The notes under the pieces are model-generated. The model made no database searches. It had not been told where the DNA came from and was given only the letters and a program-made list of their open reading frames with translations. The position numbers were made by a program, and so were the translations under genes. A stretch of 58,096 bases of DNA, the filler included, from Dugesia japonica (lineage: Eukaryota): NCBI GenBank assembly GCA_001938525.1. It is 5 parts of 5 records of this genome, joined end to end, with 100 filler letters (N's around TTAATTAATTAA, not from the genome) between each part and the next. Parts side by side here need not be neighbours in the genome. Positions count along the whole stretch, not along the records: positions 48,431 to 58,096 come from MQRL01648355.1; 4 more parts are not named here. One strand, 5' to 3'. Position 1 is the stretch's first letter. The number at the start of each line of letters is the position of its first letter. This document shows, piece after piece, positions 34,138 to 58,096 of this stretch.

Positions 34138-34730
34138 TGAAACGAACATTTTGAGAAAATATAAATAATAAGAGGGGGTTATTATACATGATTATTAGAA
34201 TTTACAAAGTATTATCATGCAATAATGTATCTGAAGCTATAAATATGTAAAAAAAACAATGTTTATTAGAAAATTTAAAATCTGAATATGGTGAAAATGT
34301 AAATGCTAAATTTACAAAATTTAAACATTCATTTTTTGATGTTTATGATGATATTACACACGTATTTATTGGTGCAATTGGAATTGGAAAAACTACATTT
34401 TCATTAGCACATTTTAGAAAACCTGTACTTGTTACTAATCTACAATCATTTAATTTAGCAACTGAAAATAATAACGGTATAGTAATTGATGATATAGATT
34501 TTAGAAAGTGGCCTGTAACTGAACTTATTCATTAATATGATTGCGAATATGATTATATGATAGATTTTAAATACAGTACAGCACGTATTCCAAAACGAAT
34601 GCCTCGTATAATATGTATCAATGATGTAGCTATGCTTTATCCATATGATATATTAAATTGTACAAAGGAAGCACTTGATCGTAGGCTACAAATTCATATA
34701 TATTTATATTTAAATTTATTTAATTTAGCG
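34138..34730 (+). pseudogene. CRESS-DNA-virus Rep-like SF3 helicase (endogenous viral element)
   Basis: Walker A GAIGIGKT (34371), AHFRKPVLV, Walker B GIVIDDIDF, W P..IH, KYSTARIP..MPRIICIN (motif C), EALDRR arginine finger. One in-frame stop at 34533. No HUH nuclease motifs recognisable. Confidence 0.85.
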
Positions 34731-34851
34731 AAAGACGAGCAAATTAGACAATCCGATGACTCAAGTAAAGGAACGTACGTCTCATATTCTAGATCGGAGC
34801 AATCGATTACCAAATCTGCCCGTGGATATGGACGCATAAACTGTCCTCAGT

Positions 34852-35510
34852 GTGATCATGAATTATCGCTTAGTATTTATTCTAATGTTAAAAAATATGA
34901 ATTTTATGGATTATAATAAATTTGTAGTGTATGGCCAGCTTTGTAAATTTCTTACGGATTTTATTAGTAATGATACTTTTAATTTTAATAACCAATTACA
35001 TAACATTCTTGACAATTTTATCCAAAAACATAATCTCAATATTACGGAAATATTTAATCCCCTCCATTATCGTCTGTGTGCAATTGGTCTTGTACTATTG
35101 CTTCAATCCGGCAAAACAACTTGTATATTACTTGATGGCACCTCTAATGCAGGCAAGTTCCTTTTCATGAAGATATTCAGTGCAGGTTTATATGTAGGAA
35201 GTTTCTCATTAATTCATATGCAATCTGAATTTTGTTTCTATAATCTTATAAATAAACAAATTGGAATTGGAAGAAGTAACATTAGATGCAAAAAATGGTG
35301 ATTATTTTAAACAATTAATTGAAAATTCTCCATTCTTTCATGTCGGTGTTAAATATGGACCTAAAGCACAATTAAAACCAATGCTATTTGGAACTATGTT
35401 TCCAGTGCCAAAGAAGCTATATTAAATCGATGTATCTATTTACCTTGTACTCATGAAGTAACTCTTGATATCAATGTTAATCTTAATAATTATTTAGAAG
35501 AATTTAAAAA
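34852..35510 (+). pseudogene. Parvoviral NS1 / papillomavirus E1-type SF3 helicase (endogenous viral element)
   Basis: GKTTCILLDGTSNAGK Walker A (35137) and SEFCFYNL; after frameshifts, IGI.EEVT Walker B, YFKQL, VGVKY, EAILNRC. Confidence 0.85.
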
Positions 35511-36986
35511 AGTAAAAATTGATATGTTAAATAGTTTTTTTATTATTTATTATTTTATAAGTAAAGTTATATTATAGAAATATTCTATATTTAAACAACC
35601 ACATACATACACAAATAAATCAACAAATCAGAACATTGAGTGATAATATATGTAATTAATCTATATTTAAACATTCTTTATAAAAAAAAATAAATGCTGA
35701 ATCATGCCCGTGGTTCGGTAGAACCTTGAGGTGTAAATACTGAAACTATCCAACGAATTTTATAAACTAAATCAAATGAAATCGAGTTTTTTCACAATAA
35801 CATTAAATATCAATAATTCTTTCTCATTTAAAAATTTGATATAAAGAGAATGATAAAAATAAAAACCGAAAGAATGCTCCATTAAATATTTCAACCTAAA
35901 TCTAGTTTCATTAAACAGTTCCACTTGATTCATTCAAGTGTTTCCAAAATGGGAAGAGTAAAATATTTCTCAAAAAGTAAGCTAAATTAAAAATTATAAT
36001 TCGGTTATTTTATTGGAAGAACTATGTAGATTATATAAACGTTTAGCTCCTATAAAAGTGTATACAAAGTTCAGATTCAATTTGACAGGGTCAGAAACGA
36101 AGTTTTTGATAAGTATATTATGCTGAGTTTCAGAGGAGAGTCGGTAATTTTAAATCCAGAGTGCTTTACGATTTCCTATAATTTAGAGTCTTATTCTGAG
36201 CTGGTACGAGTTGAAATAGTTTTCCTACGATCTCCCATCTAAGCAAATATGTTTGTGGACAATCTCAATATAAACTTATTTATCCTAATTACTTCGCCTG
36301 CTTTCATAGAAGTTTAGAAAATGAATTAGTTAAATAAAAGATTAGATTACCCTCGTGATAATGAAATATTCGATTATGCAATGAAATACAATTAATTCGC
36401 AAATGTATTTGAATGATTGAATATGAGATTGATAGTGAACCGAATTGTTATGGTTGAGTTCGTTATTATCGTTTTTTGAATGATTTTTTATTGCCTATTA
36501 AGTGTGGTCCAAACTTGATGAGACATGAATTCATATCATGTAACCATAAAAACAGGCAATAATTAAAAGAATTAATTAAAAATGTTTGACTGAAATTCAT
36601 TCAATCAAGAAAATTAAATAAGAAAACCAAGGGCTTATAAAATATACTTTTCAGTTAAATCATACTATTATTTATACTAAGACTAAAAATGAAAATATTA
36701 AAAGAAAAATATACAAAAATCGTGAAACAAATTAATGAAATATCATAAACCAAAAAAAGGGAAATAAAGTCACTAACAAATTTATTAAGTTAGAACGCAA
36801 TTCAGCCCCAGCAACAGATAATTTTTAAAAAAAGAATTGACGAATGGTCAAAGTTATCAAGAAAAAATAAAAAATATTATGAATTATAATTAAAAAACAT
36901 AGATAAGATCGTCAACTTATTAAGTAAAATCAAAATGGAAGATAATGAAACAAACCAATTTGAAATAAAATCAAACCATAAAGTTG

Positions 36987-37458: not shown

Positions 37459-37558
37459 NNNNNNNNNNNNNNNNNNNNNNNNNNNNNNNNNNNNNNNNNN
37501 NNTTAATTAATTAANNNNNNNNNNNNNNNNNNNNNNNNNNNNNNNNNNNNNNNNNNNN
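37459..37558. other. Artificial contig spacer
   Basis: 44 N + TTAATTAATTAA + 44 N. Confidence 0.95.
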
Positions 37559-38455
37559 AAAATAGATTATTATTTTTATCAAATCCAATATTATCAGTCT
37601 TTAATCCTAGTATTATGAATCTAGGTCTATATAGTTGGTTTCCTAATTTTACAGAATAATTATTTTCACTCAAAATTGAAATCCTACCTGTTACCCTTTC
37701 CCAGAAGCTTACTTGAATTGATTTATTTGTGGACATTCTTTCTAAATAATTTAATTCTACTTTAAGGTTTAAGGTCCACTCTGAAATGTGAAGTTCAAGG
37801 GTATTAATTTTAATTGTTGCTTTATGATCCTTCTTTTCAAAGAATATTAATTCATCTTGTTAATTTTTTATACAATCCAATTGAATAGTAACCTATTATA
37901 ATTCTGTAAGAAACCAAAAAGAATTTTTAAAGGGTAATAACCTTCATACTGGGTTGAATATAATTTGTTTCTTTTAGTAAAGCTTGAATGATCTATTGTT
38001 CCGGTTTTTACATCTGGTATATACCCATAACTCATAGTACAAGGTAACCTATAAATGTCATACATTATTAAATTTAACATAGTAAAAGCTATCCCCACAA
38101 TTTCCAGATCTTCAACTGTTGATGATCCANNNNNNNNNNNNNNNNNNNNNNNNNNNNNNNNNNNNNNNNNNNNNNNNNNTTTCAATCTCATGGAATTGAA
38201 TAAATTAGGAAACCAATTATTCTCTAGTGTAACATCTGTTTCGGTAGCATCTAAATAATTAATTCCAACTTTGTAATACAACTTTGAATTTCCAATGTCT
38301 AGGGGATTGGTTTATTGTAGTGATTGAAATGTTATTTCCCCAGACTTGTTTAAATTGTTAATTGAACCACTAGTTGGACTAATCTTCAATAAATCATTTT
38401 TAGTTTGTAAGTGTAGAAATTTATTGTTTGCCTCTAACTTCATGTAATAACCATT
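37559..38455 (-). pseudogene. Polinton/adintovirus double-jelly-roll major capsid protein (lineage A), decayed and truncated
   Basis: NLNKSGEITF, LYYKV, LENNWFPNLFNSMRL, GSSTVEDLEIVG..TM, YPLKILFGFLQNYNRL, RPRFIILGLKT match the pattern of Polinton capsid proteins. Confidence 0.7.
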
Positions 38456-39963: not shown

Positions 39964-40136
39964 AGTAGTAGGGAAATGATGAGTTAGACCCCCTCTCCTA
40001 ATAGCCTCGCTCGGTTTCTACGGTTTTTTAACTAAAAAGTGGTGTTTTTCTCACAAATCACTATCCACCATTTTCCGCTTCCAAAACAGGCCCTTGTGGC
40101 TATGGGGGGGGTCTAACTCGTCATTTCCCTACTACT
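39964..40136. mobile_element. 173-bp element bounded by Polinton-type AGTAGT terminal inverted repeats
   Basis: AGTAGTAGGGAAATGATGAGTTAGACCCCC ... GGGGGTCTAACTCGTCATTTCCCTACTACT (29/30 match). Confidence 0.75.
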
Positions 40137-41150
40137 GATACTTTATTGTATATTAAAGTAAAGGTTTTTGATAAGACTGGTGAAGATTTGACTGACACTC
40201 ATGATGCAATTCCGAGTAATTATATGTTACATANNNNNNNNNNNNNNNNNNNNNNNNNNNNTAATAATGTCAAAATTGAAGGGGGAAATGGATCTTATCT
40301 TCACAAAGAAATAATTTAAACTATAATAAATTATAATGGTGATAGTAAAAATAATTCTTGCAGCAATGGGATATAGATCAGAAGCAGATAGAAAACGTCT
40401 ATTGTAAAATCAAAACAATTGGCTCTATGAGGTTCTTTGCAACTCGATTTCATGGATCAACCGAAATACCTTATTCCTGGTGCCAGTGTTCGTATTCGAT
40501 CGAAACGATCATCTTCAAAGATTTATTTGGAATCTGCAGCTAATGAACCTAAAGATGTATTACTAGATGCAAAGTTAATGGTTAGACGTATACAAGTTGA
40601 ACCATTAGTACTAACTGCTCATCAAATAGGACTAAAAAGCAAAATTCTGTTTATTCAATAAGAACCAAGGAAGTCGTTGCATTTGCAATTAGTAAAGATA
40701 GTTCATTGTTTTATAAAGAACAAATTTTTGGTGATCGACAATTACGTATCTTTATTTTGGTTACATTTCAAAGAGGTGAACAATATAATGTTAGGTAAAG
40801 AATCTTGAGTTCAACATTTCAAAATTTAGATGCTGTTTCCGTTTTCTTGATTAAAAACACTGATTTTTGAGAAATATATACTCAATATTTTACAAACGAT
40901 AATTATGCTACAAGATAAATGCAATCTATGGTAAGAAATATGAGGTATTTGGATAAGAATATGAATTGCGGAATAAAACTTAGTAATTTTAAGAATAATT
41001 ATCCCTTATTTACATTTTTTCTTCAGAATCAATTACTTCAACAAGTAAATTTGAGATTGGATATCATGTTTGCCAAAGCTTTAACAACATCAGTATATGT
41101 TGTCATGAAGAAATTCAAATTAAAGACAATGGAGCAGTATTGGTGTAAAC
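40137..41150 (+). pseudogene. Polinton/Maverick major capsid protein (lineage B), decayed, 5'-truncated
   Basis: DTLLYIKVKV, PSNYMLH, LQLDFMDQPKYLIPG.SVRI, LLDAKLMVRRI.V...VL.AH, F..NYPLFTF, NLRLDI.FAKAL. Confidence 0.85.
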
Positions 41151-42185
41151 AATCCAATAAAGTAAGAGTTATTTTTTAATTTATTTTTTAATTTATTAGT
41201 TCTATTCAGATTAAACGGAGTGCATCAAAGTTAGTTGGATCAGTATTTTTCATTAAACATTGCCTTAATTGAGAATACTCATACAACAAATCTATGTGGA
41301 GAACATTAGATGGCTGTTTACTTGAGAGACAACACTAATTATTATAATGAAGCTCCATCACAGATGAAATTTTCATTTGCTTGTATTTGTAGTATACAAA
41401 ATATATGTTTTATTGACAAAAAATCTTGGTCATTTTCTTAAATAATACTAAGAAAAGTACTCTTTTAATTAAACTTATTAATATTTATATTATTTATTTA
41501 TATTTTGCATGGTTATTATGTAAGCAATACACTTATAAACCATATACAGTTGTAAAACAATTTACTTATAAGTTTTTGTTATATAAATAATGCAAGAAAT
41601 AAACAAAATTATTATTCAAATCTATTTATTAAACAATAAAACAAAAATAATAATAATTACTTCAATTCCTATTAAACAAATAAAATAACACAGCGGATGC
41701 AAATAGAGTTACAACAAATTTAGTTCTCTATTGGCTCTTCAATTCTTCCTTAATTTCTTCGATGAATATTGATTGGGAAATGAATTCAACATAGTCACGT
41801 TTACTCAAAAGACCATTGTCGATCCTGCTTAGAAATTGAATTTCATCAACTGGTAATTTTATCTGTTAATTTTTTAATTTTTCTTTTGACTTGATTCATT
41901 GTGATAATAACTTTGAATCGTAAAAGTGACTTATCTTACAAAACCTGCGGTCTATATACTTGCTGCGAATCACACATACTCTTTATTTGTTAGTTTCTAT
42001 TGGTCGTTACATGTTTTAAATGAAGTGAATGGTTATTACTCATTTTGATTTATATGATTGGGTGTAATTTGTTTTAAATGATATGATTTGTTAGATAAAG
42101 TCATATATTCATGAACGTGACGAAAGCATGCAATGTGCATGACGTGAGCATGCATTTTACATGGTTACCTCATATTACACGGTGA

Positions 42186-42690: not shown

Positions 42691-43239
42691 TTATTTGTTT
42701 TAATCATTTTGTAACAAAGGTTTTAATTTAAATATTTTATTTTTGTAAATATCACAAAAACTTTCCTCTTTGAAGTTCTTTAATAGTTATATTTTATCAT
42801 GGTAATTAAATTTAAATTTTAGACTGCCCAATATCTTTGCAATAATATCAAAAATATCAATATCTTGCAATAATTTAAAGACTGTTCAAAATGAATCAAT
42901 ACAACCAAATATCATACATAAATAGTAAAGACTCAAAAAAAGTCAATACTGACCAATCTCTTGCAAAAAATAAAAACTGACCATATAATACAAAATATAA
43001 GAACTACCAAAATGTTTTTTGTTAATGAGTTCAATAGAGATGCAACTCAGATGCAACACAGGTGCAACATACACTGAAAATCACGTTCCTGGGAATTTTT
43101 ATTGACTTTTTAGTAAACCTTTAATAAATGCAATATAGGATGTAAATTGTACTGCGGCGCCACTATTTCTCTACTAGATGTGTTAAATAGTTGGTCTTTT
43201 ACCATAAGCTCTAATAATATTTCTAGTTTAATATCCTTA

Positions 43240-45120
43240 CTCTCCAAGAAAGACTATCTGTGTCTCCTTCCACTATATTGATCTTACATTTTTCTTCTCT
43301 ACCATATTTTTCCTCGATATACTGAAGCTAGTAGATTCTCAATTTCAACAAATCTAATATTTTCTGTCCTTTATCTCAACACATATCTCAACACATATTC
43401 TTTATTCAACTGAAATGCTATTACGTCGTTGTTGATTTTGATTGTTTTCCTAAACTATGGATTTCATACGTAGGTTAATAGATTATTAGCTGAATTTCAT
43501 GTTTTAAGATTCATTCTTTTCTTTAGATTTTCGATGGATTTAACATTTAGTGCATAAATCAGCAGTTTATAATAGTTTTTGTTTAATTCTGTTTTTATCA
43601 ATACACTGTTTTTATCTATGTAATCTTTGAAAATAGGTGCCTGAGTGAAGTTTACTGCACTATGAACATGTGTTACTTGCACACCTAAATGCAAAAAAAT
43701 TTAATAAAAATTTATATGAATCAATAAATTAAATTGATATTTTTGATTGATGAGCAATCAGACAAAGTTTTTCTGTGGTTTTTGGAATACATGAAATATT
43801 TCATTTTGTGAATTTGACTAAGTTTATACTTGAGAATATGATGGAGATTGTGAAACACTACTGGTAACAATTTGATTATTTTTCTACATAGATTGCATTT
43901 GTTACAATCAGCACCAAAGTATTTCCCTGAGAAATGATTATGATCACGAACTGTTTTGCCTATCATCTTTTCACATAAATGGCATATTTTAACTGCAGCA
44001 AAGACAATTTCTTCAGCTCTTGATATATTCATTTTCTTTCGTCCATTTTGAATATGGTATTTATTACTTGTAATTTCTTATAATTTTTTCATAAACTTTT
44101 AAATACAGTCTTCTCAATAAACTGACTGAATTTCGCAACGTTATTACATATGTTTACTAACAATAGTCTAGCTGAAATTGGAAGATTCTTTTGAAAATAT
44201 TTGTCATATTTCAACGACACTGATTCAAAATCATCGTAAATGGCAAACAGTGAAGTTATTATTTTCCAATGATTTTTAAACTCCAATTTTGGATCATTTG
44301 GTGTGGTGTACATTGTGGTATTTGTTTGAATCTTGCTGCACATAGGTTCGTGTTTTTTGTAAGTTATACTGTTTTTGAACCCATTGAGACAATTGGTGCA
44401 CCATGTTGATTGAATTCCTACACTATAGTTTTTTTGTCTCGGTTTATTAGATAATTTTAATTAATTACTAACTTGTAATGAAAGTTTTCACCGTTTTTCA
44501 ATAGTAAAAGATTAATTATTTGCCCATCTTCTACTTTTGATCTATGATTAATGTAAAAATTTGGATGCTTCATATCAACATCATAATCTTCGATTAATTG
44601 AAAGTTCTTTGAGAAGATATTGGTGATATTTCCTGGATTTTGTTGCCCAAAAAATTGGAATATTTGCCAATTTCAAAGGCATATCCTTTTAATCAAATGC
44701 TAGTTCAGACGTGTATTTTTTATATTTTGCTGGTTAATGCTTATTTCTTTCTTCAACTATATCTTGTTTCAGAATAGCAAGAATGCTGTATATAAAACAT
44801 AGATTGTCATTGTTTTTGACGTTAACAACGGTTCTTTTTTTTAAAGTTTTTTGTGTTGGAATGAAACTACTTACTGAAAGTCTACGGACATTGCTGAATT
44901 TAGTTATTTTGAAATTAGTTTTCAAAATATCTTGAATATCTAGTTTGAACCAATTTCATTTCTAATCGTTATCTTCTCATTTAACTATTTAATCCTTTCT
45001 TCAAAAAATGTTTCAACCAAAGAAACTACTTGATTTGATATTCTACAAGTTTTAATATCTTTATCTCTTAGAAAGTCAACAGTATTATTATATTAGTCGT
45101 TGTTTGATCTAATACTGGTT
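43240..45120 (-). pseudogene. Polinton protein-primed DNA polymerase B remnant 1 (N-terminal region fused to a palm fragment; large internal deletion)
   Basis: SSFIP..L....VVNVKNNDNLCF.YSILA; FKNHWK....FAIYDDFES; CHLC..VRDHNHFSGKYFGA.CNKCNL; PVVFHNL; FTQAPIFKDYIDKN; YKLL..ALNVKSIENLKKR; GDTDS. Confidence 0.9.
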
Positions 45121-45676
45121 TCCGTCTTGCTATCTTAGTTGGGGGGATGGAGTTTATAATGTGTTAATAAATGTTATGCAATAAATCTTTTTTAATGAAA
45201 ATTTGTTTTTATTTTTTCATTTTAAACATAATTTTTAATTAAACATTATCTTTTTAATTACCTGCTTCAATTGTTGGTAATAATTTAAGTTCTAGTACAA
45301 AATACTTTTTATCAATATTTGTCAACATTTCTTCTATAATAAGATCCAAATTCATTGTTAATAAAACATCCTATTTCATTTTGTTTATATTTAACATGAA
45401 AATGCATACACAATGCATGTTTTGGTTATGTTTATAAAAAGAACTTAATAAATAAATAATAAGAAATTATAATAGCATTTTTTCTTAAAAAAATATTTAC
45501 ATTTCACAATTTTAAGTTCTAAGGAGAACGTGTTATACTTTCACAATGTTTTTGTTTTCGTTTTCTTTTTTCATTATAATCTAAATATAAATAATTAAAA
45601 TGACAGTTAAAAACAAATAAATAAATACCTTTGTTTGAGGTTTTGTTCTTGACGAGGCTGGACCAAATGTACGATT

Positions 45677-46680
45677 TTAAGGGGAAAAACTATTTAATAG
45701 TATAGTGCCATATGGGACACTTTTATATTTGTCAACCCTAATGAGCTTATCGTCTGTATTTGTCAGTGCTAATTTATTAGACTTAATGCTATACAAATGA
45801 TGATTTTTTATGCTTATCCTAAATTGTTTCACTGAGACTGATTTGTTTACATTATAACAGTCAAGGTAAGATTGATGAGAACTTTCTGTGTTTTCAATGT
45901 TGTCTTTTGCTCTCATGCTTCTCTAATCGCTGAGCAGGCTATAACATTCCAGCCTCAAAAATACCCATTCTTGATACTTTAGCATTTATTCTCATCTTTA
46001 AATTTCCCCATTACTGAATTTATGCTGTTACAATAAAGGGTACGATCTTTATCATAATTTAAAGTATCAAGTAACTGATCTGTTATAGTTTTTAATTTAA
46101 TAATATTTATTTCTAGAAAAAAACTATATGTATCACCAACTACAATATTAATTTTACAATTAAATTTCTTCTTCTTAAACTCAATGTACTGAAGTTTGTA
46201 CATTTTAATTTTGAGAGGTCAAGTACAGTTTGCCCTATGTTGCTCGGATGATCAAAACAAACTTTATTCTTATTGAGAATAACAGCTATTAAATCATCAT
46301 CAATTTTTGTGGTTTTCTTAAATCTGGATTTTGATGTGTATGTAATCAACTTTTTCACTGAATTACATAAGCGCAGATTAATCCCATTCTTAAGATTCTC
46401 AACTGACTGTCCATGTAAATTGTAGTTTAAAAGTATATGATAGTTTTCATCAAATTCTGTATCGCAATTTGAATTGTATTTGTATTAATGTAATTTTCAA
46501 AAATTGAGGCCTGTCTAAATTTAACAACTCTATAAACCTCTGTTACTCAAACCCCTAAACTTAAGTACATTGGCAATAATCTCCAGTGCACTTGGCGAAG
46601 TGCATTAGCATTAATTTTCTCATTTTCTAACCGGAGGAGCTCCTATTATTTGCTGCAACCAGTAAATCGTTCAAATAATC
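45677..46680 (-). pseudogene. Polinton pPolB remnant 2 (C-terminal palm/thumb)
   Basis: SVENLR, FDHPSNIGQTVLDLSK, GDTYSF, LDTLNY, MGKFKDE, HHLYSIKSNKLAL..TDDK, SVPYG. Confidence 0.9.
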
Positions 46681-46685
46681 GTGTA

Positions 46686-47445
46686 CAATATCGTCCATAT
46701 GTTTTGAGCCACCTTATAAAAATGCACATAATAGTAGATTAATTAAATTAATTGTTTTATGATTTGAAATATTTTAATTTAGATATATGGTGATGTTAGC
46801 TTTATATTTCATTAAAAATTTATTATCTCAAATAATTATTGTATAATTAATAAAATACATTTGTTATAATAAGCCGTTTTTTAAAAGTTTTGATATTATT
46901 TAAATACATAAACTATTTTAAAGTATTCATTAATTTTTTAGGTAAAAACTATATTTACAATATTTTACTCATTGTTACCTAATATATTCTTATAATTTTA
47001 GAAATAATTTAGTTAAACATGGCTCGGATATCGATAGATATTAGGAAATTAGTCATTTAAAAATTGAAAGAGGGTTTGTCTCAGTGGAAAGTTGCAATTC
47101 TACGTAATAATTCAAGGTATGCTGTACAACATATTATACTCAAGACAAAACAACATAAAACATTGGGAAATCTATTTAAAAGTGGCCGAAAACCGGAAAA
47201 TACACAAAGATCTGAAAGATCACTTATATCAAAGAAATATCCCCAGAAAACAGCACGTCAGCTTTTGATTGATTAGAAAACAAGCCTAACTTCTTCAGTT
47301 AGTATTGTCAAGCGTATTATGAGAAATTGCGGCTTGTTTGGATTTATTGCAGTAACGAAACATTTATTATATGAGCGACAAATTAAGAATCGCTTAAAGT
47401 GTTGCAAAGACTATGGTAACCTGATTCATTCTTTATGGAATGACG
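46686..47445 (+). mobile_element. Tc1-type transposon 5' part
   Basis: TA-CAATATCGTCCATATGTTTTGAGCACC TIR-like start interrupting pPolB. MARISIDIRKLVI..LKEGLSQWKVA, SGR, PQKTARQL, R.K.CK form a bipartite HTH region from 47020. Confidence 0.8.
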
Positions 47446-47678
47446 TCAGATTAGGATAGAACTATATATACAATAAAATCGCAGTATAGTAAGTGTATTG
47501 ATGATGATTCCACTGTATCAGCACAAAACAGTTATAGTTTGGGTGATGACATCACTGTGTCAGTGCATTCCAGTTAGGGTTTGGAATCGAAACCTTGGAT
47601 GAAATTCTGATAAAACGAAGCACTTTACTACAGTAATCCTTTAAACAATGTATATGCAGTATTTTATTTGGTATATAA

Positions 47679-48430: not shown

Positions 48431-48571
48431 GTAACTCATATTTATCAATTTGATTTATGATCATTTTGTTTATACATTTCTATAATTGAAATTTGTATGA
48501 GTCATCTTCTTTGTTCACGTTTTGCACTGTTCTTGCTTCATGTATGTATTGATCATGTCTTCTGCATTGAT

Positions 48572-49004
48572 TTAGTTTTTCCTAATTAAATTATTCAAAT
48601 TAGATATTACAAAATCGACTTGAGGTTGATAATCCAATGTTTTGATTCCAGCAAAGACTAATTTTTTTCTTATGAAAATACATTTACACAGACTTGATTG
48701 AATTTTAATAATTTAGGTTCATACATACATTTAGTTCTTTTTGCTAAATCATATAAATTGATTGAATATCCCATATTGATAACGACTGTATTCGACTGTA
48801 GTTGAATATCTTTGATATCATATTGTAAATATTTTCTTTTCAATGTTTTTTACACCCCATGATTCTACATCTTCTAGATTTGAAAACTACTAAAGTATAT
48901 TTTCCCGTTTTGTCAACAACTTGTGATGGCCTGCCAACTGAAAAATTCATTTTTCTTGTAACCTCTTGTGAAACTTTGCCTCTGTAATTAATATTTTCAA
49001 TCAT
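48572..49004 (-). pseudogene. TATA-binding-protein (TBP)-like gene, intronless, two frameshifts and one stop
   Basis: Manual translation: MIENINYRG...YTLVVFKSRRCRIMGCKK / IQLQSNTVVINMGYSINLYDLAKRTKCMYEPKL..FNQVCVNVFS* / KLVFAGIKT. This matches both TBP repeats (ALIFSSGKMVCTGAK; IQNMV..D..F.IRLE.L..YEPELF..LLIFVSGKVVLTGAK). Confidence 0.75.
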
Positions 49005-49047
49005 AATTATATCAATAAATTTTTAAAAAGTGAATATATACATATAC

Positions 49048-49706
49048 ATGAACAATAATTTAATTGATACATTAAAACAAACAATAATTGAATAAAGAAA
49101 TGATGCTGTTTATCAAATTGCCGGTCGAAGTGAAAGTGGAAAAACTCTATTTGTGTGTAAATTATTGAAATCAAAACTATTCAAATCAAAATTCAACAAA
49201 ATATATTGGCATAGAGGAGCTGATGAAGAACATGGATTAACTCAATTCAAATTCTGTGATATAAAAATGAAAATTATAAACGGTTTTTTTGAGAATTAGA
49301 GCAAGAGATTAACTAAAGGTGGTGTGATTGTTGTTGATGATTTGTATCAGGAAGCAAACAAAAAAATGACTTTAACAATTTATTCACCAAGATATCAAGA
49401 CATTGTAATGTGACTGTAATATTTATTACTCAGAATCTATTCCATCAAGGAGGTGGCCATAAAACTCGTAATTTAAATATACAATATTTGGTTGTATTTG
49501 AAAATCCAAGAGATCAAACAGTTGTTGATTTTCTTGCAAGACAAGCATATCTAAGCAATAGGCAATTTCTTTTGGATTCATTCAAAAATGCAACAGTAAA
49601 TCCACATGAATATCTTTTTATGGACTTTACATAACAATGTTCAGATGAACTTAGAGTGAGAACTGATATTTTCAATCCAAATGGTGTTATCTTATATAAA
49701 CAATAA
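49048..49706 (+). pseudogene. Polinton A32/FtsK-like packaging ATPase
   Basis: IAGRSESGKT Walker A, VIVVDDL Walker B, LFTKISRH.NVTVIFITQNLF, LNIQYLVVFENPRD, P.EYLFMD, LRVRTDIF. Confidence 0.93.
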
Positions 49707-50049
49707 ATGTAATTTCTTATTTCATTTACAAATGTCGAAATTTACTAAACTAATAGTTGATCAACTCAAGAATAAAATGATTAAATAAGATAAAAATCCA
49801 AAAGATATTTAATAAAGAAGACAACCAACAAGTCGGCAAAGATTGTTATTAAAAAGAAGAAACAATNNNNNNNNNNNNNNNNNNNNNNNNNNNNNNNNNN
49901 NNNNNNNNNNNNNNNNNNNNNNNNNNNNNNNNNNNNNNNNNNNNNNNNNNNNNNNNNNNNNNNNNNNNNNNNNNNNNNNNNNNNNNNNNNNNNNNNNNNN
50001 NNNNNNNNNNNNNNNNNNNNNNNNNNNNNNNNNNNNNNNNNNNNNNNTC

Positions 50050-50310
50050 TAGAGCCAAAATGTTGCAACCATTTTCATCATTTGTTGTTGACGATTTACT
50101 AGAGTTTATTGTAAACATAGTTCGTAGTAATGCAGTTATAAGAAAAGTTAGAAAACAAGCATAGGAAAAACATAAAAGATAATTGCTTTTACTTGAACAT
50201 ACCAAGAATGAAAAATTAAATTTAGAAAATATTATACAAACAACATCGCGGCTTTATCGCTACATTACTACCTATTGTATTGGCTTCATTAGGTCTAACA
50301 AATTTTTCAT
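50050..50310 (+). pseudogene. Small conserved Polinton ORF (basic, C-terminal LLPI motif)
   Basis: VNIV.SN, KHKR.L..L and LLPIVLASL, lying between ATPase and integrase; decayed. Confidence 0.45.
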
Positions 50311-50380
50311 AAACAATATATACCAAATTTGATATAAACAATGGGAAATTAAGAATCATTACCTAGAATTAATCTAAGAT

Positions 50381-51410
50381 TTGGATAAAATTGTTGTAAT
50401 GGACAAAACAGAGATGATATGGACAGAACCAAAAATTCTAGCAGGATTCAAACGAGTAGAAAAACTATGGAAAGCAACACAAAATTCGAAAGACAAGATG
50501 CAAAAGTNNNNNNNNNNNNNNNNNNNNNNNNNNNNNNNNNNNNNNNNNNNNNNNNNNCCAATGTTGAAAATATTTCCAACAAGAGCATATAAAACATTTA
50601 ATATTGACAATTTATGGCAAATGGATTTGATGGAAATGATACCTTAATTAATAAGGATTAAAAGTACATTTTAACATGTATCGACGTATTTAGCAAATTT
50701 GCGAGAGCTGTTCTAGTCAAGTCGAAATCTGCAAATGCAATGGAAGCTGCAATCAAGTTAATGATTGACGATGGACATCCTGATAATTTACAAACTGACT
50801 TGGGAAAGGAATTTTACAACTCTAAAGTCAAGAATATCATTTCANNNNNNNNNNNNNNNNNNNNNNNNNNNNNNNNNNNNNNNNNNNNNNNNNNNNNNNN
50901 NNNNNNNNNNNNNNNNNNNNNNNNNNNNNNNAAAAAGTACTTTGTACATACTGGAAATAAAACATGAATACATGTATTTCCGAAAATAATTCATAGTTAT
51001 AATCATACAAATCATAATGGATTGAATGAAGCAAAAACTGTAGATGTATCATCTGAAAATTCAATGAAATTATGGTTATTGAAACAAAAACCGAAAGTTA
51101 TTAAAGAAAACCATAATATAAAGTTGATTATTATGTTAGAATCTCAAAGATATCAGCTTCACCATTTATCAAGAATTGTGATAGTAATTGAAGTGACGAA
51201 GTGTTTTAAATATCGAAAATCAATACCAAGCAGAATCCAATCATGTATGTGATTAAAAAATATGAAGATAATATCATTCAAGGAAAATTCTATGAGCAAG
51301 AATTACAAGTAATTCTCCAACCAACAGTATTTAGAATAGAAAGGAATTTAAAATCAAAGGGAACAAGTATTGATAAAATATTATATGTAAAATGGCATGT
51401 ATACTAAAAA
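50381..51410 (+). pseudogene. Polinton retroviral-type (c-)integrase with a C-terminal chromodomain-like end
   Basis: DNLWQMDL, YILTCIDVFSKFA, LQTDLGKEFYN, SYNHT, DYVRI, IQGKFYEQELQ, FRIE, LYVKW. Confidence 0.93.
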
Positions 51411-51460
51411 CTTACATGAATATCAGTATCTCAAATAGTAAATTCAACAAAGAAGAAAAT

Positions 51461-52492
51461 ATGAACAAAACGAATAATTTCTATACACTTTTACCGAGTA
51501 ATAGTTATCCACTTATTCATCTAGATAACAATGCTAGTAATTTCTATGTCGAACGTCAAAATTCAATTTATTTGAACGGTCAATGGGAAGAGGCTTTGAT
51601 GGATTTCACTTTAATATACTCAGCTTTTCCATTTTATAGTAAATCCAATATTAAATATATATAACAGGAAAAGACGAATGGAAGGAAATACTTGTTACAA
51701 TTGATAATAAGGAAAACAAATTGTGTACCAGTGATGACGATGTTATTCAAATATATGAAAAAGAAAACTTGCATATCAAATTACTACATCATGAAAATGA
51801 ATTGAAATTTGAAAACCTTGAATATGCAAAACGATTTGGATTTGAAAATTTAAATAACGACATAAAAATTGCAGACAAGTTTATTTTCTTTCAAACGTTT
51901 AAAAACGATGATTCAATAGAACCTATAAAAATTAAGTTATTTTATTCAATAGAAACTGTCAATGTCATTCAGTTTAAAGATGATTTGTATATAATAAAAA
52001 TCAAGCAGTTAAATATTAAGCGGAAAATTGTTTTGATATATTTAAAACTCTTTATCTGAAAAACGATGAACCATTTAGATTTTCGCTGTTAGATAATTTT
52101 AAAAGTGTAACATTTGATGGAATTCTAACAAAAAAAACTTGGATTAGTCAAACAAAAGTATTTCCGGGATGAAACAATTGATATTCAAGAAACTGTTGAA
52201 TTCACGGCACCTAAAAAACCGCAATTGTTGAACAATCATCAACAAGTAGCATTATTGAACCTGTTATTGTTGGTGATGTTAGTGTTCCTCTGTTGAAATC
52301 CATATGTGGTTGGAAACGTATGAAGATGATCACGTGGTCCAAATAATTGTTGAAAATTCAATGTATTTACTAATATCCACATCGTTTATAAACAATATCG
52401 AAATCAATATACGGGATGATAACGAAAATTTAATCAATTTTGCTAAAGACTCAAAAACTCATTTAACACTACATTTTCGAAAAAATGTCTAA
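51461..52492 (+). pseudogene. Polinton minor capsid (penton) protein
   Basis: FYTLLPSNS....DNNASNF.V.....I.LNGQWE.AL at the N-terminus; IIEPVIVGDVSVPLL and IEINIRD...LINF......LTLHFRK at the C-terminus. Confidence 0.88.
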
Positions 52493-52678
52493 TCCGGATA
52501 TCATTTCATTGTATAGTACTAGTCAAGCCGGGCGAGAATTACCATACTTTGTAGGAAAATAGTATGGCTCTGGATTGTTGCAAACAACTGATCGATTTGC
52601 TTTACCTATTCTTAGATGTATTGGAGATATTGGTATGAAAACAGTTCAGGATGTGATATCAAATAAATCAAAAATTTT
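52485..52678 (+). pseudogene. Polinton core-protein-like ORF following penton, truncated
   Basis: YSTSQAG.ELPYF.G..YGSGL....RFALPIL...G...V.DV pattern; overlaps the penton stop and is cut at the telomeric tract. Confidence 0.65.
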
Positions 52679-52698
52679 GGGTTAGGGTTAGGGTTAGG
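52679..52698 (+). repeat. Interstitial telomeric tract GGG(TTAGGG)2TTAGG
   Basis: Direct reading; lies exactly at the Polinton/gypsy junction. Confidence 0.85.
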
Positions 52699-52699
52699 T

Positions 52700-53381
52700 G
52701 CGTTTGCCAAATCTGGAATACCTAGTATTCTATTTGCGGGAAATTCTACTGCATTTATAAAATCCTTCAAATTCATACCAACTAGAATGCAGCTATCTAA
52801 AATCTTCTTTATTTTCTCTTTAAAATCTTCGCCATCCTAGTTTCCTGTAATTTGAGCTTCTTGCAACCCATGTGCATGCGCTTGGTAATGTTTGATGCAA
52901 CTGCGTGGAGTAATAATGGAATTGATTATCAGTTCACCGTCAAAATTAAGCACGGTGGCTGAAACTATAGCTGATTCAAATTTTCTTTGAGTGTAACATG
53001 GTAAAAAGCCCCGAAACCTGTTACACAATTTTCCTGTTGCGGGGTTAGAGACAATCGCACAAATGATTTCTGTATTTTAATGTCATTAAAATTGGCATAA
53101 TAAGTCCATGTGAGCTCATTCATAGCTGACCTAATGGCTGGTTTTTCAAAATATAAGACCTCCACAGCGATAATTGCTGTACCTTTGATGCATTAGAAAC
53201 CTATTTTCCTCTCCCTGCTATCTTCATTGATGATCTCCAGGGTGGTATGTTTTTCCAAATATACGGGGGTTGCTATTCCCTATAATGCAACCGTGATTGA
53301 TTTATTGATTGCATGAACTCACAGGTTAGATGTTCTTGGTTCATTTTTCATATCTCTAAATACATTCATAATATTTGCCAT
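52700..53381 (-). pseudogene. DEDDh 3'-5' exonuclease (REXO4/ISG20/REX1-like), decayed and 3'-truncated
   Basis: AIIAVEVL (ExoI-like, first D appears mutated); IVSATVLNFDGELIINSIITP..IKHY..HAHGL..QI; FKEKIKKILDSCILVGMNLKD (ExoII-like). Confidence 0.7.
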
Positions 53382-53429
53382 TTCTCGGCAACATATTGTG
53401 GAGACAAACATGGTTCTTTTTAGAGCATT

Positions 53430-54340
53430 AGGAAATTTGAATTTATTTGGGATTGCCGTTGTCTCATAAGACGTAACTTTTTCAACTTATTCTGTGCTCA
53501 TAGCCACACCGCAATCACACCCATAAAGCCAATTCCTGCTACCAACAATGCTAATACCATCTGAATACGCTTTTGCATTTTGCTGTTAGCCTTGTTATTT
53601 AAGGAGTCGGTGTAGAACAATTACACTGCGCTAAGGCCATTTGAGATGCTACCTTTTCCACGCTAACATTTGTCTGACATGTTTTAATTCTATTCCAGAA
53701 GTTTTTATTTAATTTTCTGGAAATCGGTTTCTTACTAACCGTACCAAACATAACCTTGCTTGATTGTATTTCTTCAGAGAATACCAGATATGTGGCTGTT
53801 GATGCTTCTTTCTGTCGATAATATCTAACTTTTATATCGGAGTTAAGTCCAAAACACCATCTCCAAACATTAACGTTTTTGTTCAAACGAATTATAGAAT
53901 TTAATTTTCCGTGGTAAAGCTCGATTTGTGTTTCCTCCTGCTCTGTTTGTACTTTTGTGAAAAATAGGCATGATCCTTTGTACGATATTACTACTTTGTT
54001 TATTGGCAATGTCGTAAGATACCATCCGGTGGTTCTTACAGTCTCCCCATATACAGATTTGAATTGCTGATACCAACACTGCATAGAATAGGTATAGTTA
54101 GCCTTTAAATTTCTGATATTGACCTCTCTGTTTCTATATCCTATCTTGTAATCTGTTTCTGTTCCATCGGAAATAAACGCTATGTGGTAGTTGAATGTTG
54201 ATTCGACTGTTGTTCTTATAGAGAATTTATGGTACCATCTTCGTAATATTATTTTCTCCATTGGTACTGCTTTGGGTTGAATTTCAATCTGTGCACTGAC
54301 CATATTAAGACTACTTATTATTGCAATAATCATTAATATT
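53430..54340 (-). pseudogene. Env-position type I membrane protein: signal peptide, FN3-like beta-rich ectodomain, TM helix, basic tail
   Basis: ILMIIAIISSLNMVSA/Q signal; NIRNLKANYTYSMQC resembles the FN3 L.P.T.Y motif. After a frameshift near 53610: MVLALLVAGIGFMGVIAVWL then KLKKLRLMRQR. Confidence 0.65.
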
Positions 54341-57130
54341 TGCGAATACGTTTGTGATCTTAGTGGATATCTATTGTTAGATCCTTGAGTGTTTGTTGAA
54401 GACCTTTTTGCCTTGTCCTTGACTTTTATCTCTTTATTTTTAACTTGCTCATCTTTTGTATAATATTTGTTGCATCTATTTGCATGTACTAGTATAAGTT
54501 CTGCTTTTCTGTTAGAACAAAATTGTTAGACTAAATTAGTTTCTGTTGTTTTTAATACCTCATAAGGTTCCTTGTAGTTTCGTACCAACTTCGGTGACAA
54601 ACCTTATGTATTATTATGCCCTTCGAACATTACTAAATCTTGCACTCTTAACTTGTGCGGTTTAGTCTTTTTATCATATGCCTCTTTCATTCCTTCTTGT
54701 GAATATTTAATACTTAAATTAGCTTTTGGCTAAGCTATTTGCATCTTATCTTTTAGTTCAAGCAGATAATTGCTCTCATCAAGGTACTGTGATAATAGTG
54801 TTAAAAATACAAGATCTACCGGCATGTTGCTATTTCTCAAATACATTAAAGGAAACGGTGAATAACCTGTACTTGAATGTACTGCGTTACGATACGCGAG
54901 CAAGCATGTGGGTATGTGAATGTCTCAATCCGTTTGCTCAGAATTGAGATATGATGATAGCATTTGAGCTAATGTTCCATTAAACCTTTCGACTAATCCA
55001 TCCGTCTGAGAATGATATGGAGATGTATTTAATTTTAATATTCCAAAATACTCATTTATTCCTTTTAATAAATTACTCATGAAATCTTTTCCTCTGTCGG
55101 TTAGCAACTTTCTTGGTACTCCATATCGAAAGACTATCTGTTCCACAAAGATTCTAGCCATTGTATCTGCTTTATGGTCCGGCATAGGAAAAGCTTTGGG
55201 CCATTTTGTGAGATAATCCCAGGCTACTAATATAAACTTATTTCCATCATTTGTAGGTTTAAATGGTCCCAACACATCCATCGCTAGAAATTTCATTGGT
55301 GATATTGGAATTGGCATTGGTTTCAATGGTACCCTTGTTTTGGCTCCTGTATTTCGTCTGGTAGTACAAACATTACATGTTTGACACCATTGCTTTACTT
55401 CCTGACGAATTTCCGGCCAAAAATATTTCTGCCTTGGTCTAGAAATTGTTTTTTTGGCTGAGAAATGTCCTCCCAATTGCCCATCATGATATTGTAACAT
55501 CAAAGCATCTCTAAGAGTTTTTGGTACCATTACAACATTATCAGTTGCTTCCTGATATTTCACTAATCCATCTTCTAATAAGAATTTTCCTTGGTTCTTC
55601 GACCAAAACTTTTCAAATTCGACTGGTACTATTTCAGTTTCTAGAACCTGTTTTATTTGATTAATTTCCTCATCCTCGAGTTGAGCCTTGATCACATCGA
55701 CTTGGTTGTTTGCCATTTTAAGAACTGCAAATATTGTTTCTTCTAATCTTCCTTCTTTAATATCTTCAGGCTCATCATCCTGATCCATTCTTGATAATGC
55801 ATCTGCATTTGAGTTCTCTTTTCCTTTTCTGTAAATGATATCTATATCATATGGCTTTAATTTCAATGCCCATCTAATTAGTCTAGATGAATCGTTCTTA
55901 TGCTTCATCAACCATTGTAATGGCTTGTGATCGGTGTAGATTATTATCTTTCTACGCCAAAGATAATGTCTAAATTTATCAATCGCGAATATTACTGCTA
56001 AAGTCTCTAACTCTATCACATCATAATTTTTCTCGTGAGGCTTCAGCCCTCTACTTGCATAAGGTATAGCGCATTCATTACCGTTTTCATCGAGTTGGCC
56101 TAACACAGCCTCAGCTTCTTTATTACTGGCATCCGTCATGACCATGAATTCTTTTTCGAAATTCGGATATTTAAGTATTGGTGCAGATATTAATAGATTC
56201 TTGAGCGTCTCGAACGCGTTTTCCTGTTTAGTTTCCCATACAAATTTAACTCCCAGTTTTTCCACCTGTGTTAAGGGGAATGCTAGGGCTGGAAAATCTC
56301 TAATAAATTTTCTATAATATCCTGCTAATCCTAAGAACTCTTTTATTTGTTTTGGATTCTTTGGTTGAGGAAATTTTTGTACTTTTCTTATATTTGCTGG
56401 ATCAGGTCTTATTCCTTTCCGAGATATTACATGACCCACATAAATGACTTCCTCCTCAGCTAATTTACATTTTGTAGGCTTTAATTTAATGTTTGCTTTT
56501 TATAATCTAGTGAACACCTCTTCCAAATTTCCGAGATGTTCATTGAACGTTTCTGAGAAGACTAATATGTCGTCAATGTATACCATTGCAAATGGCACAT
56601 CTTCTAGGATTTTATTCATGGTTCTTTGAAATGTCTCCGGAGCTCCTGTGAGTCCAAATTNGCATAACATTATACTCGTAATGACCCATATTTATTGAAA
56701 ATGCAGTCATTCTTTTAGTTTCCTCAGTGCATACGATTTGACAAAGTCCTTTTTGTTCATCTCCTACGAAGTAATATAATGCTTTTTTTAATTTATCGAA
56801 TATCCATTTCAATAATGGTAAAGGATGACTGTCCTTGACTGTCACTTCGTTTAATTTACGATAATCATTGCATAATCGTACTGTTCCGTCTTTTTTAGCC
56901 ACAACTATTAATGCGGACTGGAATGGTGATTTACTGTGACTGATAATTTTATATTTTAACATCAGTTTAACTTGCTTTTCTACGTTTGCTTCCAATTTCT
57001 CAGGAAATGGATACGGTCTCAACTTGATTGGTTTATCCGTTGTGAGCACAATTTCATGCTCCAAGATATTTGTTATTCCAAGATCANATTCGTGTTTAGC
57101 GAAAATATGATCAAATTTTCTTAGCAACAT
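54341..57130 (-). pseudogene. pol: Gypsy pol: RT, RNase H, integrase
   Basis: LCNDYRKLN, YIDDILV, FLGLAGYYRKFI, TDAS, TDHKPL, NADALSR, H..GH..C..C zinc finger, AMDVLGP, LTDRG, GLVERFN, PYEV (GPY-like), RYPLR. Confidence 0.97.
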
Positions 57131-57163
57131 ATTTATGAGAATATTTTCTTTTCTAGTTAAAAT

Positions 57164-57933
57164 TTAACTATCGCAACAAGGTGCATCATAGTATTCGATA
57201 TCTGGATCACGTTGCTCTGTAACAGAGAGTTTTGAAGATTTCCCAATTATTTCATCATCTAGTACATAAATAACTTCCATATTTGTATCTGGAAAAAATG
57301 TAATCGGTCTAATGTCTAAATTTTTCAATTTTATTGAAAATCTACCTTCTCTAACCTGGCTGACGCTATAGGTTCTGGGTATAAAATATCTTTCCATTAA
57401 CAGACGATTTGACTCAAACAGTACTTCTCCTTCCTGCTTGAGTGTAGTATTGATAGTACATACAGTTTCTACCATAGGAGGTATCGTGATCTGTCTATCG
57501 ATATAAGCCAAGTGTTTATTGTATTCTTTTTTACGCTTTCTGGTTAACTTTACCAGCTGTCCTGTGGCGCAATCAAAAACCACATCTTTGAGCTTTTTCA
57601 ATACATCCATATCCAATATACTTTCTACTGGACATCTCCTCATGACTTTTATTTCATGTTTTATGTCTTGATCACATAATTTTATATTACAAACTAGATA
57701 TCCAATGATATCTAATTTTCCTCCGTTTTTGCTGCAGTAATGTCTGATTGTTCTTTAATAACATTTGCAGTTTCTGTTTTATTCAGTAGATTGGCTTCTA
57801 CTATTGTTCTGTCTGATCCGAAATCTATCATAGCGTAGACTACATGTCGATTAATTCTTATTTTTATTGTTGGCTTGTGAGCGTATTCTGCATTTACCAT
57901 AAAAGTTGACATAAATGTTGAAATCCCAAACAT
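57164..57933 (-). pseudogene. Gypsy aspartic protease and PR-RT spacer
   Basis: IRINRHVVYAMIDFGSDRTIV (DTG-like) and SILDMDVL (ILG.D-like), followed by a beta-rich spacer ITIPP...IKLKN...PIT. Confidence 0.85.
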
Positions 57934-58096
57934 GTTTTTCTTTGTGTATCAAATTTTAGTTCTGTTTGATTATTCATACCATTTCTTTCTTGTAATTGAT
58001 AGTTTTGATTAAACTAATTTTTTCTAAACTGCTCTGAATTCATATTTGATAAGTTTCTTATTCTAGTTTTCTCTTTTTCCCAGTTTTGAAATCCTT

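Follow-up and report, generated by a model that had tools for sequence, protein, structure and literature searches.

A shortened TATA-binding protein family among the genes of a Polinton clade and a TATAAAC box before its packaging and capsid genes

Introduction

Viruses that encode a TATA-binding protein (TBP) are known. In TBP, residues of helix 2 in the N-terminal lobe bind TFIIA, Mot1/BTAF1, Brf and TAF1, and two glutamates in the C-terminal lobe bind TFIIB; viral TBPs often lose these glutamates and bring their own TFIIB, according to the sections of Ravarani et al. (PMC7221094) that deal with these surfaces. The KSHV protein ORF24 reads a variant TATT box and has a polar DNA face, as set out in part of an article (PMC12529657).

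A Polinton-like element with a TBP is also already in print. Figure 5 of Starrett et al. 2021 (PMC8502044; bioRxiv 10.1101/697771) carries a TBP label on its map of MELD viruses with adintovirus-like PolB. The figure legends, section 3.4 (which concerns non-animal datasets) and related passages leave the TBP-carrying element unspecified and describe no family, structure or box, and part of its supplement gave no match to TBP or TATA as a term. An initial annotation of the DNA studied here, which proposed a Polinton encoding its own TBP and was aware of no earlier description, was too strong on the latter point, given that the legend to that figure lists TBP. In the Polinton/Maverick/adintovirus literature covered by our search, whose scope excluded most subscription papers, Repbase and bioRxiv supplements, we found neither a helix-less TBP family nor a TATAAAC box, and a fuller description may exist somewhere.

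Here, we compare with these systems a TBP-like gene that lies next to the packaging ATPase of a decayed Polinton in Dugesia japonica. The window, by which we mean the whole stretch of DNA that was analysed, is 58,096 nt long and consists of five parts of five records of assembly GCA_001938525.1 joined end to end with filler; neighbouring parts need not be neighbours in the genome, and positions 48,431 to 58,096 come from MQRL01648355.1.

Methods

A piece of the window's ATPase yielded 138 relatives, and an alignment of 60 led to the best 80 of 262 confirmed metagenome loci, giving 81 loci in all. Locus L001 was rejected as a relative, being an unrelated phage-like contig. A HMMER library search gave 10 matches, two of which (P0126 and P0129) were repetitive artefacts and were removed. 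Nine of the 120 listed proteins were left out of the family alignment (one duplicate of the L035 protein and eight that were short or over-long). The set of viral-contig TBPs comprised five TBP-like genes from 14 loci. Labels of capsid genes were assigned from size and gene order. Boxes were scored 15–60 nt before the start, and near-identical upstream sequences were merged.

Results

The window is made up of AT-rich, repeat-laden, eukaryotic-type DNA. Its minus strand contains a broken TBP gene, much as the initial annotation described it: the pieces (49004–48843, 48849–48673 and 48712–48575) are distributed over three frames and separated by two frame breaks, and every motif quoted for the gene was found. 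Together, these pieces tile the 151-position profile of the family described below from end to end (1–53, 54–119 and 112–150, with E values of 8e-20, 2e-15 and 2e-4), and 126 of 126 tested family proteins match the window at the TBP locus only. The closest family protein shows 73, 53 and 36% identity to the three pieces, and an Atlas search with the window TBP gave TBP clusters as top matches (0.91). When the pieces were searched separately, Pfam TBP matched only the middle one, with E = 0.029 and 14.6 bits (cut-off, 22.9), a PDB sequence search with two of them gave no match, and the middle piece retrieved nothing by word search and nothing among viral contigs. The window copy is dead, a broken copy of a real, conserved and shortened TBP, and as such is merely one more occurrence of the TBP-like gene. 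Over this copy, 0 of 967 and 0 of 21 RNA reads matched at ≥99%; the reads represent related copies only, and their strand is ambiguous. D. japonica holds many diverged copies of the element (5774 and 5399 contigs aligned), and at least one contig bridges positions 48794–49211, covering both TBP and ATPase.

Table 1. Coordinates of the TBP-like gene, the other Polinton genes and the boxes within the window
Feature	Position	Strand	Remarks
Decayed minimal TBP-like gene	48572..49004	−	Frame breaks near 48845 and near 48665; ~6 codons missing after YEP motif
TATATA	49035..49040	−	31–36 nt before TBP ATG; putative function
TATAAAC-box position of relatives' ATPase	49047..49053	+	Degenerate here; overlaps ATG 49048
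A32-like packaging ATPase, decayed	49081..49706	+	Three in-frame stops, one frame break
Intact TATAAAC	49695..49701	+	Within last ATPase codons (YKQ); 38 nt before ATG 49733 of a small basic gene
'core1', decayed ~110-aa conserved gene	50051..50309	+	Partly N-masked; putative core-protein label
TATAAAC between core1 and integrase region	50333..50339	+	Intact
rve integrase, decayed	50378..51446	+	At least five pieces; rve E 4e-5 on one piece
Penton-like gene, decayed	51446..52489	+	Label putative, based on size and gene order; no Pfam name
pV-like small gene, first 64 codons	52467..52682	+	Match stops where env-like ORF and Gypsy-type pol start
Putative major capsid gene, decayed	40107..41107	+	Same lineage; ~45% identity to relatives
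Piece of ~95-aa gene	41731..41865	−	Between TBP and ATPase in five relatives
Polymerase-like gene	43226..46591	−	Two rearranged, partly duplicated piece sets; matches relatives' 1,089–1,218-aa ORFs with endonuclease VII domain

The genes around the TBP belong to a Polinton (Table 1). The integrase, penton-like and pV-like genes are on the same contig and are likewise decayed, in keeping with the initial annotation. The window's ATPase shows up to 81% identity to database ATPases over a 97-aa piece, and its relatives carry PF04665; an ATPase of this type and an rve integrase are genes that a Polinton/Maverick (adintovirus) would be expected to carry. Left of the TBP, the window contains rearranged capsid, ~95-aa and polymerase-like pieces from this lineage. 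The polymerase-like pieces match long ORFs of loci L006, L020 and L059, in which Pfam names endonuclease VII only; by its architecture, this long ORF is a putative protein-primed PolB. An adenain protease was not found in the window and is present in locus L031 (Peptidase_C5, E = 1e-7). When the 25 longest of the 549 inverted pairs were inspected, neither terminal inverted repeats nor a target-site duplication stood out, in a copy that is rearranged and has its right end under a retroelement.

Other elements have left traces in the window as well. A Gypsy-type pol with RNase H and integrase (52700–58096, minus strand; Pfam E values to 1e-36) starts where the Polinton match stops, and is followed by a 308-aa ORF with no family match that is possibly env-like. 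A second, different capsid remnant of double jelly-roll-like type (37506–38311, minus strand; PF21738, E = 2.5e-5) probably comes from another Polinton-type element. Broken ORFs at 34251–35577 contain P-loop-like motifs that resemble SF3 helicases of small ssDNA viruses; Pfam, PHROG and PDB gave no support for these ORFs. Between the polymerase-like pieces and the TBP (47061–47600) are fragments reminiscent of a Tc1/mariner transposase, and pieces of MULE (1547–2191) and mariner-type (5623–6210) transposases lie further left.

The initial annotation placed the ATPase ATG at 49048, 43 bp from that of the TBP gene. While the arithmetic is correct, ATG 49048 opens only 15 codons and is then followed by a stop. 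The start implied by relatives is 49081 or 49087 in 80 of 117 alignments and 49048 in just one, which makes ATG 49048 an unlikely start for the ATPase; with 49081 or 49087, the gap between the two genes is ~80 bp. The TATATA reported for this spacer is present, but its distance from the TBP gene's own ATG argues against the role of a target for the encoded protein, and it is probably the ordinary TATA box of the TBP gene itself. An ordinary box, TATA[AT]A, precedes the TBP gene in seven of 11 relatives. Judging from the motifs and their spacing, the ~80-bp spacer most probably contains two promoters arranged back to back. The head-to-head order of TBP and ATPase is not conserved but local to the window copy: in 10 of 13 relatives the TBP gene lies upstream in the same orientation, in two it is divergent with genes between, and in one it lies downstream.

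Homologues of the window's TBP pieces occur in 13 of the 81 ATPase-selected loci, and all 13 fall within the 49 loci of the near clade, in which every locus is a partial element. The genes comprise 11 intact ORFs of 144–161 aa (three near-identical) and two broken ones. No TBP was found within 3.3 kb upstream in L008 or within 2.5 kb upstream in L012. Of 2763 candidates, 201 matched a profile of the family at E ≤ 1e-5, with a typical size of ~150 aa (median, 152 aa), and PF00352 was found in all 120 listed. Each of 16 aligned family members matches PF00352 at E ≤ 0.1 (best, 5e-18), the first with 58.8 bits against the cut-off of 22.9 that the window's separate pieces fail to reach. No confirmed match was obtained among viral contigs, whether with the family, with the profile of the ATPase or with the TBP of L072 described below. 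These data show that the TBP-like gene represents a conserved family lying among Polinton genes, a linkage seen in the window and in the 13 loci.

A quick tree of 62 rows, computed without animal TBP or TRF2, places the window copy among 40 family members (SH-aLRT 96), to which it shows up to 61% identity. All family members group together in this tree (SH-aLRT 97) and are separated from 16 archaeal and four viral-contig TBPs. For nine distinct intact TBP genes, pN was smaller than pS in 36 of 36 pairs, and the identities of TBP and ATPase were correlated (rho = 0.48, P = 0.03, n = 9). In one well-resolved pair, dN/dS was 0.37 for the TBP versus 0.02 for its ATPase.

Several further observations concern the neighbourhood of these genes. 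Nine ATPase/TBP pairs have a matching source by eye, including the two ATPases closest to that of the window, a hint of further linkage. Two loci of a distant Polinton (ATPase identity, ~37%), which have no TATAAAC before the ATPase, carry a different, 174-aa TBP-like gene on the minus strand (L072:124–648 and L073:135–659; Pfam E = 7e-13), which lies upstream of the ATPase in the opposite orientation, beside a dUTPase piece. The position of this gene in the tree is uncertain, and it may have been captured independently or be a relative that is less reduced. A conserved gene of ~120 aa stands beside the TBP in seven of 13 loci (L006, L010, L019, L020, L021, L022 and L035), and three of its copies show, by eye, what looks like a short intron at the 5' end (GT...AG ahead of the ORF). 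Weak structural leads for it point to T7-type ssDNA-binding proteins (TM <0.55), Pfam gave no match, and the window contains no copy; on these grounds, it was rejected as a TBP partner or stand-in for TFIIB. TFIIB was not found among 79 representatives of the 238 ORFs of the near clade, again from partial elements. An ORF of 80–95 aa, which starts with MG and contains a CC pair, overlaps the 5' end of the integrase gene in another frame (L012:3700–3957 and 17 other near-clade loci), and possibly encodes a lipid-modified virion protein. Other captured, host-like genes found upstream of the ATPase in the clade are those for a ubiquitin-conjugating enzyme, a dual-specificity phosphatase, TRAF and RING finger proteins (L006:222–719, L008:190–3328 and L016:1710–2171).

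To assess the fold, we modelled the intact protein of L035 from a 120-row alignment (pLDDT 95.9). A Foldseek search with the model gave 44 matches at E ≤ 0.001, with every listed one a TBP chain, and structural alignment placed 145 of 145 residues over positions 164–336 of human TBP, spanning both repeats (Z 14.4, rmsd 2.3; best unrelated fold, Z 7.2). By this model, the intact relative folds as a TBP saddle. TBP is expected to have two helices per repeat; the modelled first repeat consists of strands only, with no helix of four or more residues before residue 83, and the helices (83–87 and 131–144) fall in the second repeat, making the protein a predicted variant rather than a canonical TBP. 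Compared to the 28 archaeal TBPs on which the family was mapped, the linker that follows strand 5 is shortened by ~14 residues. Family alignment and predicted fold thus agree with the original proposal of a minimal, divergent TBP that has a shortened first repeat and lacks an N-terminal tail in a Polinton lineage.

Residues at the functional surfaces are strongly conserved. F40, F99 and F115, in register with intercalating Phe residues of TBP, are found in 120 of 120 sequences. At the fourth intercalating position, the first Phe of the N-lobe, no Phe is in register; F20 is kept in 108 of 120 sequences and, from its conservation, may stand in for the missing residue. In TRF2, TATA binding is described as having been lost along with a comparable loss of Phe. 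The glutamates that bind TFIIB are retained (E95, 118/120; E97, 120/120). Also conserved are N6, R46, M48, C111 and N113 (120/120 each), S70 (119/120) and R103 (118/120). Five of these are near-fixed substitutions relative to archaeal TBP (R46 for V, M48 for T, S70 for N, R103 for V and N113 for L), at positions that face the DNA in TBP structures. With that assignment, the DNA face of the viral TBP would be more polar than its archaeal counterpart and nearly invariant. The model indicates that the family has deleted the regulator site of the N-lobe and kept the TFIIB site.

A second conserved feature of the near clade is a box, TATAAAC, which precedes the ATPase gene in 27 of 29 cases, at a distance of 32–52 nt. 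It is also found before core1 (25/27), the capsid gene (MCP; 5/7) and 'exo' (3/3), but before only three of 10 penton-like and two of seven pV-like genes, and was absent before the TBP (0/11), integrase (0/10) and protease (0/2) genes. Given their shared ancestry, these counts, like those of the TBP, are not phylogenetically independent, and many of the loci appear to come from a single collection series. Among distant Polintons, TATAAAC precedes one of 25 ATPase genes, compared to three with TATAAAA and five with TATAAAT; before the near-clade ATPase, TATAAAA is found in 0 of 29. The motif is strongly biased toward the ATPase strand in the near loci (217 versus 9 on the other strand, in 175 kb) and evenly spread in the far loci (8 versus 11, in 110 kb). 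Of all TATAAAC occurrences, 135 of 217 lie 28–56 nt before a candidate start, compared to seven of 90 for TATAAAA. We conclude that packaging and capsid genes of the clade carry TATAAAC at promoter distance.

The box frequently overlaps the end of the preceding gene, and its spacing was used to ask which gene it belongs to. The distance from TATAAAC to the ATPase ATG has a standard deviation of 3.7 nt, whereas that to the upstream stop has one of 83 nt (27 of 37 loci with an upstream ORF) and extends up to 326 nt. The box is thus anchored to the downstream ATG rather than the upstream stop, a pattern that favours a promoter over a 3'-end signal. In places where TATAAAC overlaps coding sequence, it is conserved at the level of the bases and sits in two different frames. 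The terminal YKQ of the ATPase is coded with the box in 36 of 36 cases, versus 51% expected from codon use, and four of 40 ATPases lack YKQ.

Discussion

The TATAAAC box shared by packaging and capsid genes suggests that these elements activate their late genes themselves. It also lends indirect support to the idea, raised in the initial annotation, that the viral protein could direct host polymerase to structural-gene promoters. We favour, with some confidence, the reading that the viral TBP is a late-promoter factor which uses host TFIIB and Pol II. The TBP gene would be read early, by host TBP, from its ordinary TATA box. Its product would bind TATAAAC(A) and recruit host TFIIB and Pol II, turning on the late virion genes. 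Without helix 2 of the N-lobe, it would be blind to TFIIA, TAF1, Brf1 and the evictor Mot1/BTAF1. Whether a single 150-aa gene runs the entire early-to-late switch, as a minimal TBP with no regulator-binding surface, re-specified to TATAAAC and using host TFIIB and Pol II, we regard as an even question. Certain data speak against a late-promoter role. The link between protein and box is co-occurrence in one clade, which amounts to a single evolutionary event, and the TBP is seen in only 13 of the 49 near-clade loci, albeit partial elements. The first Phe of the N-lobe is out of register, few penton-like or pV-like genes and no protease genes are preceded by the box, and dN/dS of the TBP is far above that of the ATPase.

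A further point of this kind is that host TBP can bind the variant box: PDB entry 1qn3 is, by its title, wild-type TBP on a C(-25) box. The variant TATAAACG kept 27% activity in Arabidopsis protoplasts, in the relevant part of a published study (PMC10005294). It is therefore conceivable, though in our view unlikely, that TATAAAC is read by host TBP or another viral factor, and that the viral TBP acts as a booster or as a competitor, raising TBP activity in general or sequestering TFIIB to shut down the host. The TFIIB glutamates are indeed the best-kept host-like feature of the protein, and the TBP gene moves within the element and is absent from the sampled part of 36 of 49 near-clade loci. 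However, a decoy would leave the invariant, rewritten DNA face unexplained, and host TBP would not impose a C at the seventh position, where no near-clade ATPase promoter has the TATAAAA alternative.

Improbable, in our estimate, is a non-transcriptional role, in which DNA bending by the viral TBP would serve replication, integration or packaging, with TATAAAC acting as a signal of another kind, such as a polyadenylation-like one. Such a role would fit the frequent coincidence of the box with the upstream gene's end (37 of 39 ATPase ends) and the probable ssDNA-binding gene that often adjoins the TBP (7/13 loci), but not the tracking of the downstream ATG by boxes far from any upstream stop, the lack of a box after the MCP gene (0/7) or the retention of the TFIIB-binding glutamates. 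That the window TBP is a processed pseudogene of host TBP or TRF beside a Polinton ATPase, as its intronless, broken state and a tree without animal TBP or TRF2 might allow, is refuted in substance and can be given hardly any weight, since the family matches, the profile tiling and the tree place it within a Polinton family whose helix-less first repeat it shares and which is under selection (pN < pS), has only 20–28% identity to cellular TBPs, human included, and is present in many diverged copies in the species, with TBP and ATPase bridged by a contig.

If the viral TBP is a late-promoter factor, a dedicated protein and a defined late box would make the timing of Polinton virion genes, and the question of a true viral cycle, testable. 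The family is also a natural experiment on TBP, showing which surfaces can be dropped (the helices on which TFIIA, TAF1, Mot1 and Brf dock) and how minor-groove specificity may be re-tuned. The protein and its box would be a candidate orthogonal TBP–promoter pair, and a simpler, independent parallel to late transcription in herpesviruses.

Compared to cellular TBP (PF00352; 1cdw, 1ytb, 1qn3 and 1mp9), the Polinton protein has the same saddle over 145 residues (Z 13–14.4), a complete second repeat with YEPELFP and three Phe in register. It differs in having a core ~28 residues shorter, no helix in the first repeat, no N-terminal tail, replaced residues on the DNA face and the low identity given above. 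Nucleocytovirus TBPs likewise have the TBP fold (BFVD matches to E = 2e-8) and diverged regulator sites in the N-lobe, as far as the pertinent sections of PMC7221094 describe them, but are mostly longer, share 9–21% identity with the Polinton family, have often lost the glutamates and are accompanied by a viral TFIIB. By analogy, the Polinton TBP most likely works like the TBP mimics of beta- and gammaherpesviruses (KSHV ORF24 and EBV-type BcRF1, with the box TATTWAA), although it is not of the herpesvirus family and BcRF1 is a weak fold match (E = 0.008). Here, too, a nuclear virus without a polymerase has its own TBP-fold factor with a polar face and a variant late box, to judge from the portion of PMC12529657 on these proteins. 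ORF24 is there a large, multidomain member of a six-protein complex that does not have the TFIIB glutamates and binds directly to Pol II, whereas the Polinton protein is a bare 150-aa saddle in which the glutamates are kept.
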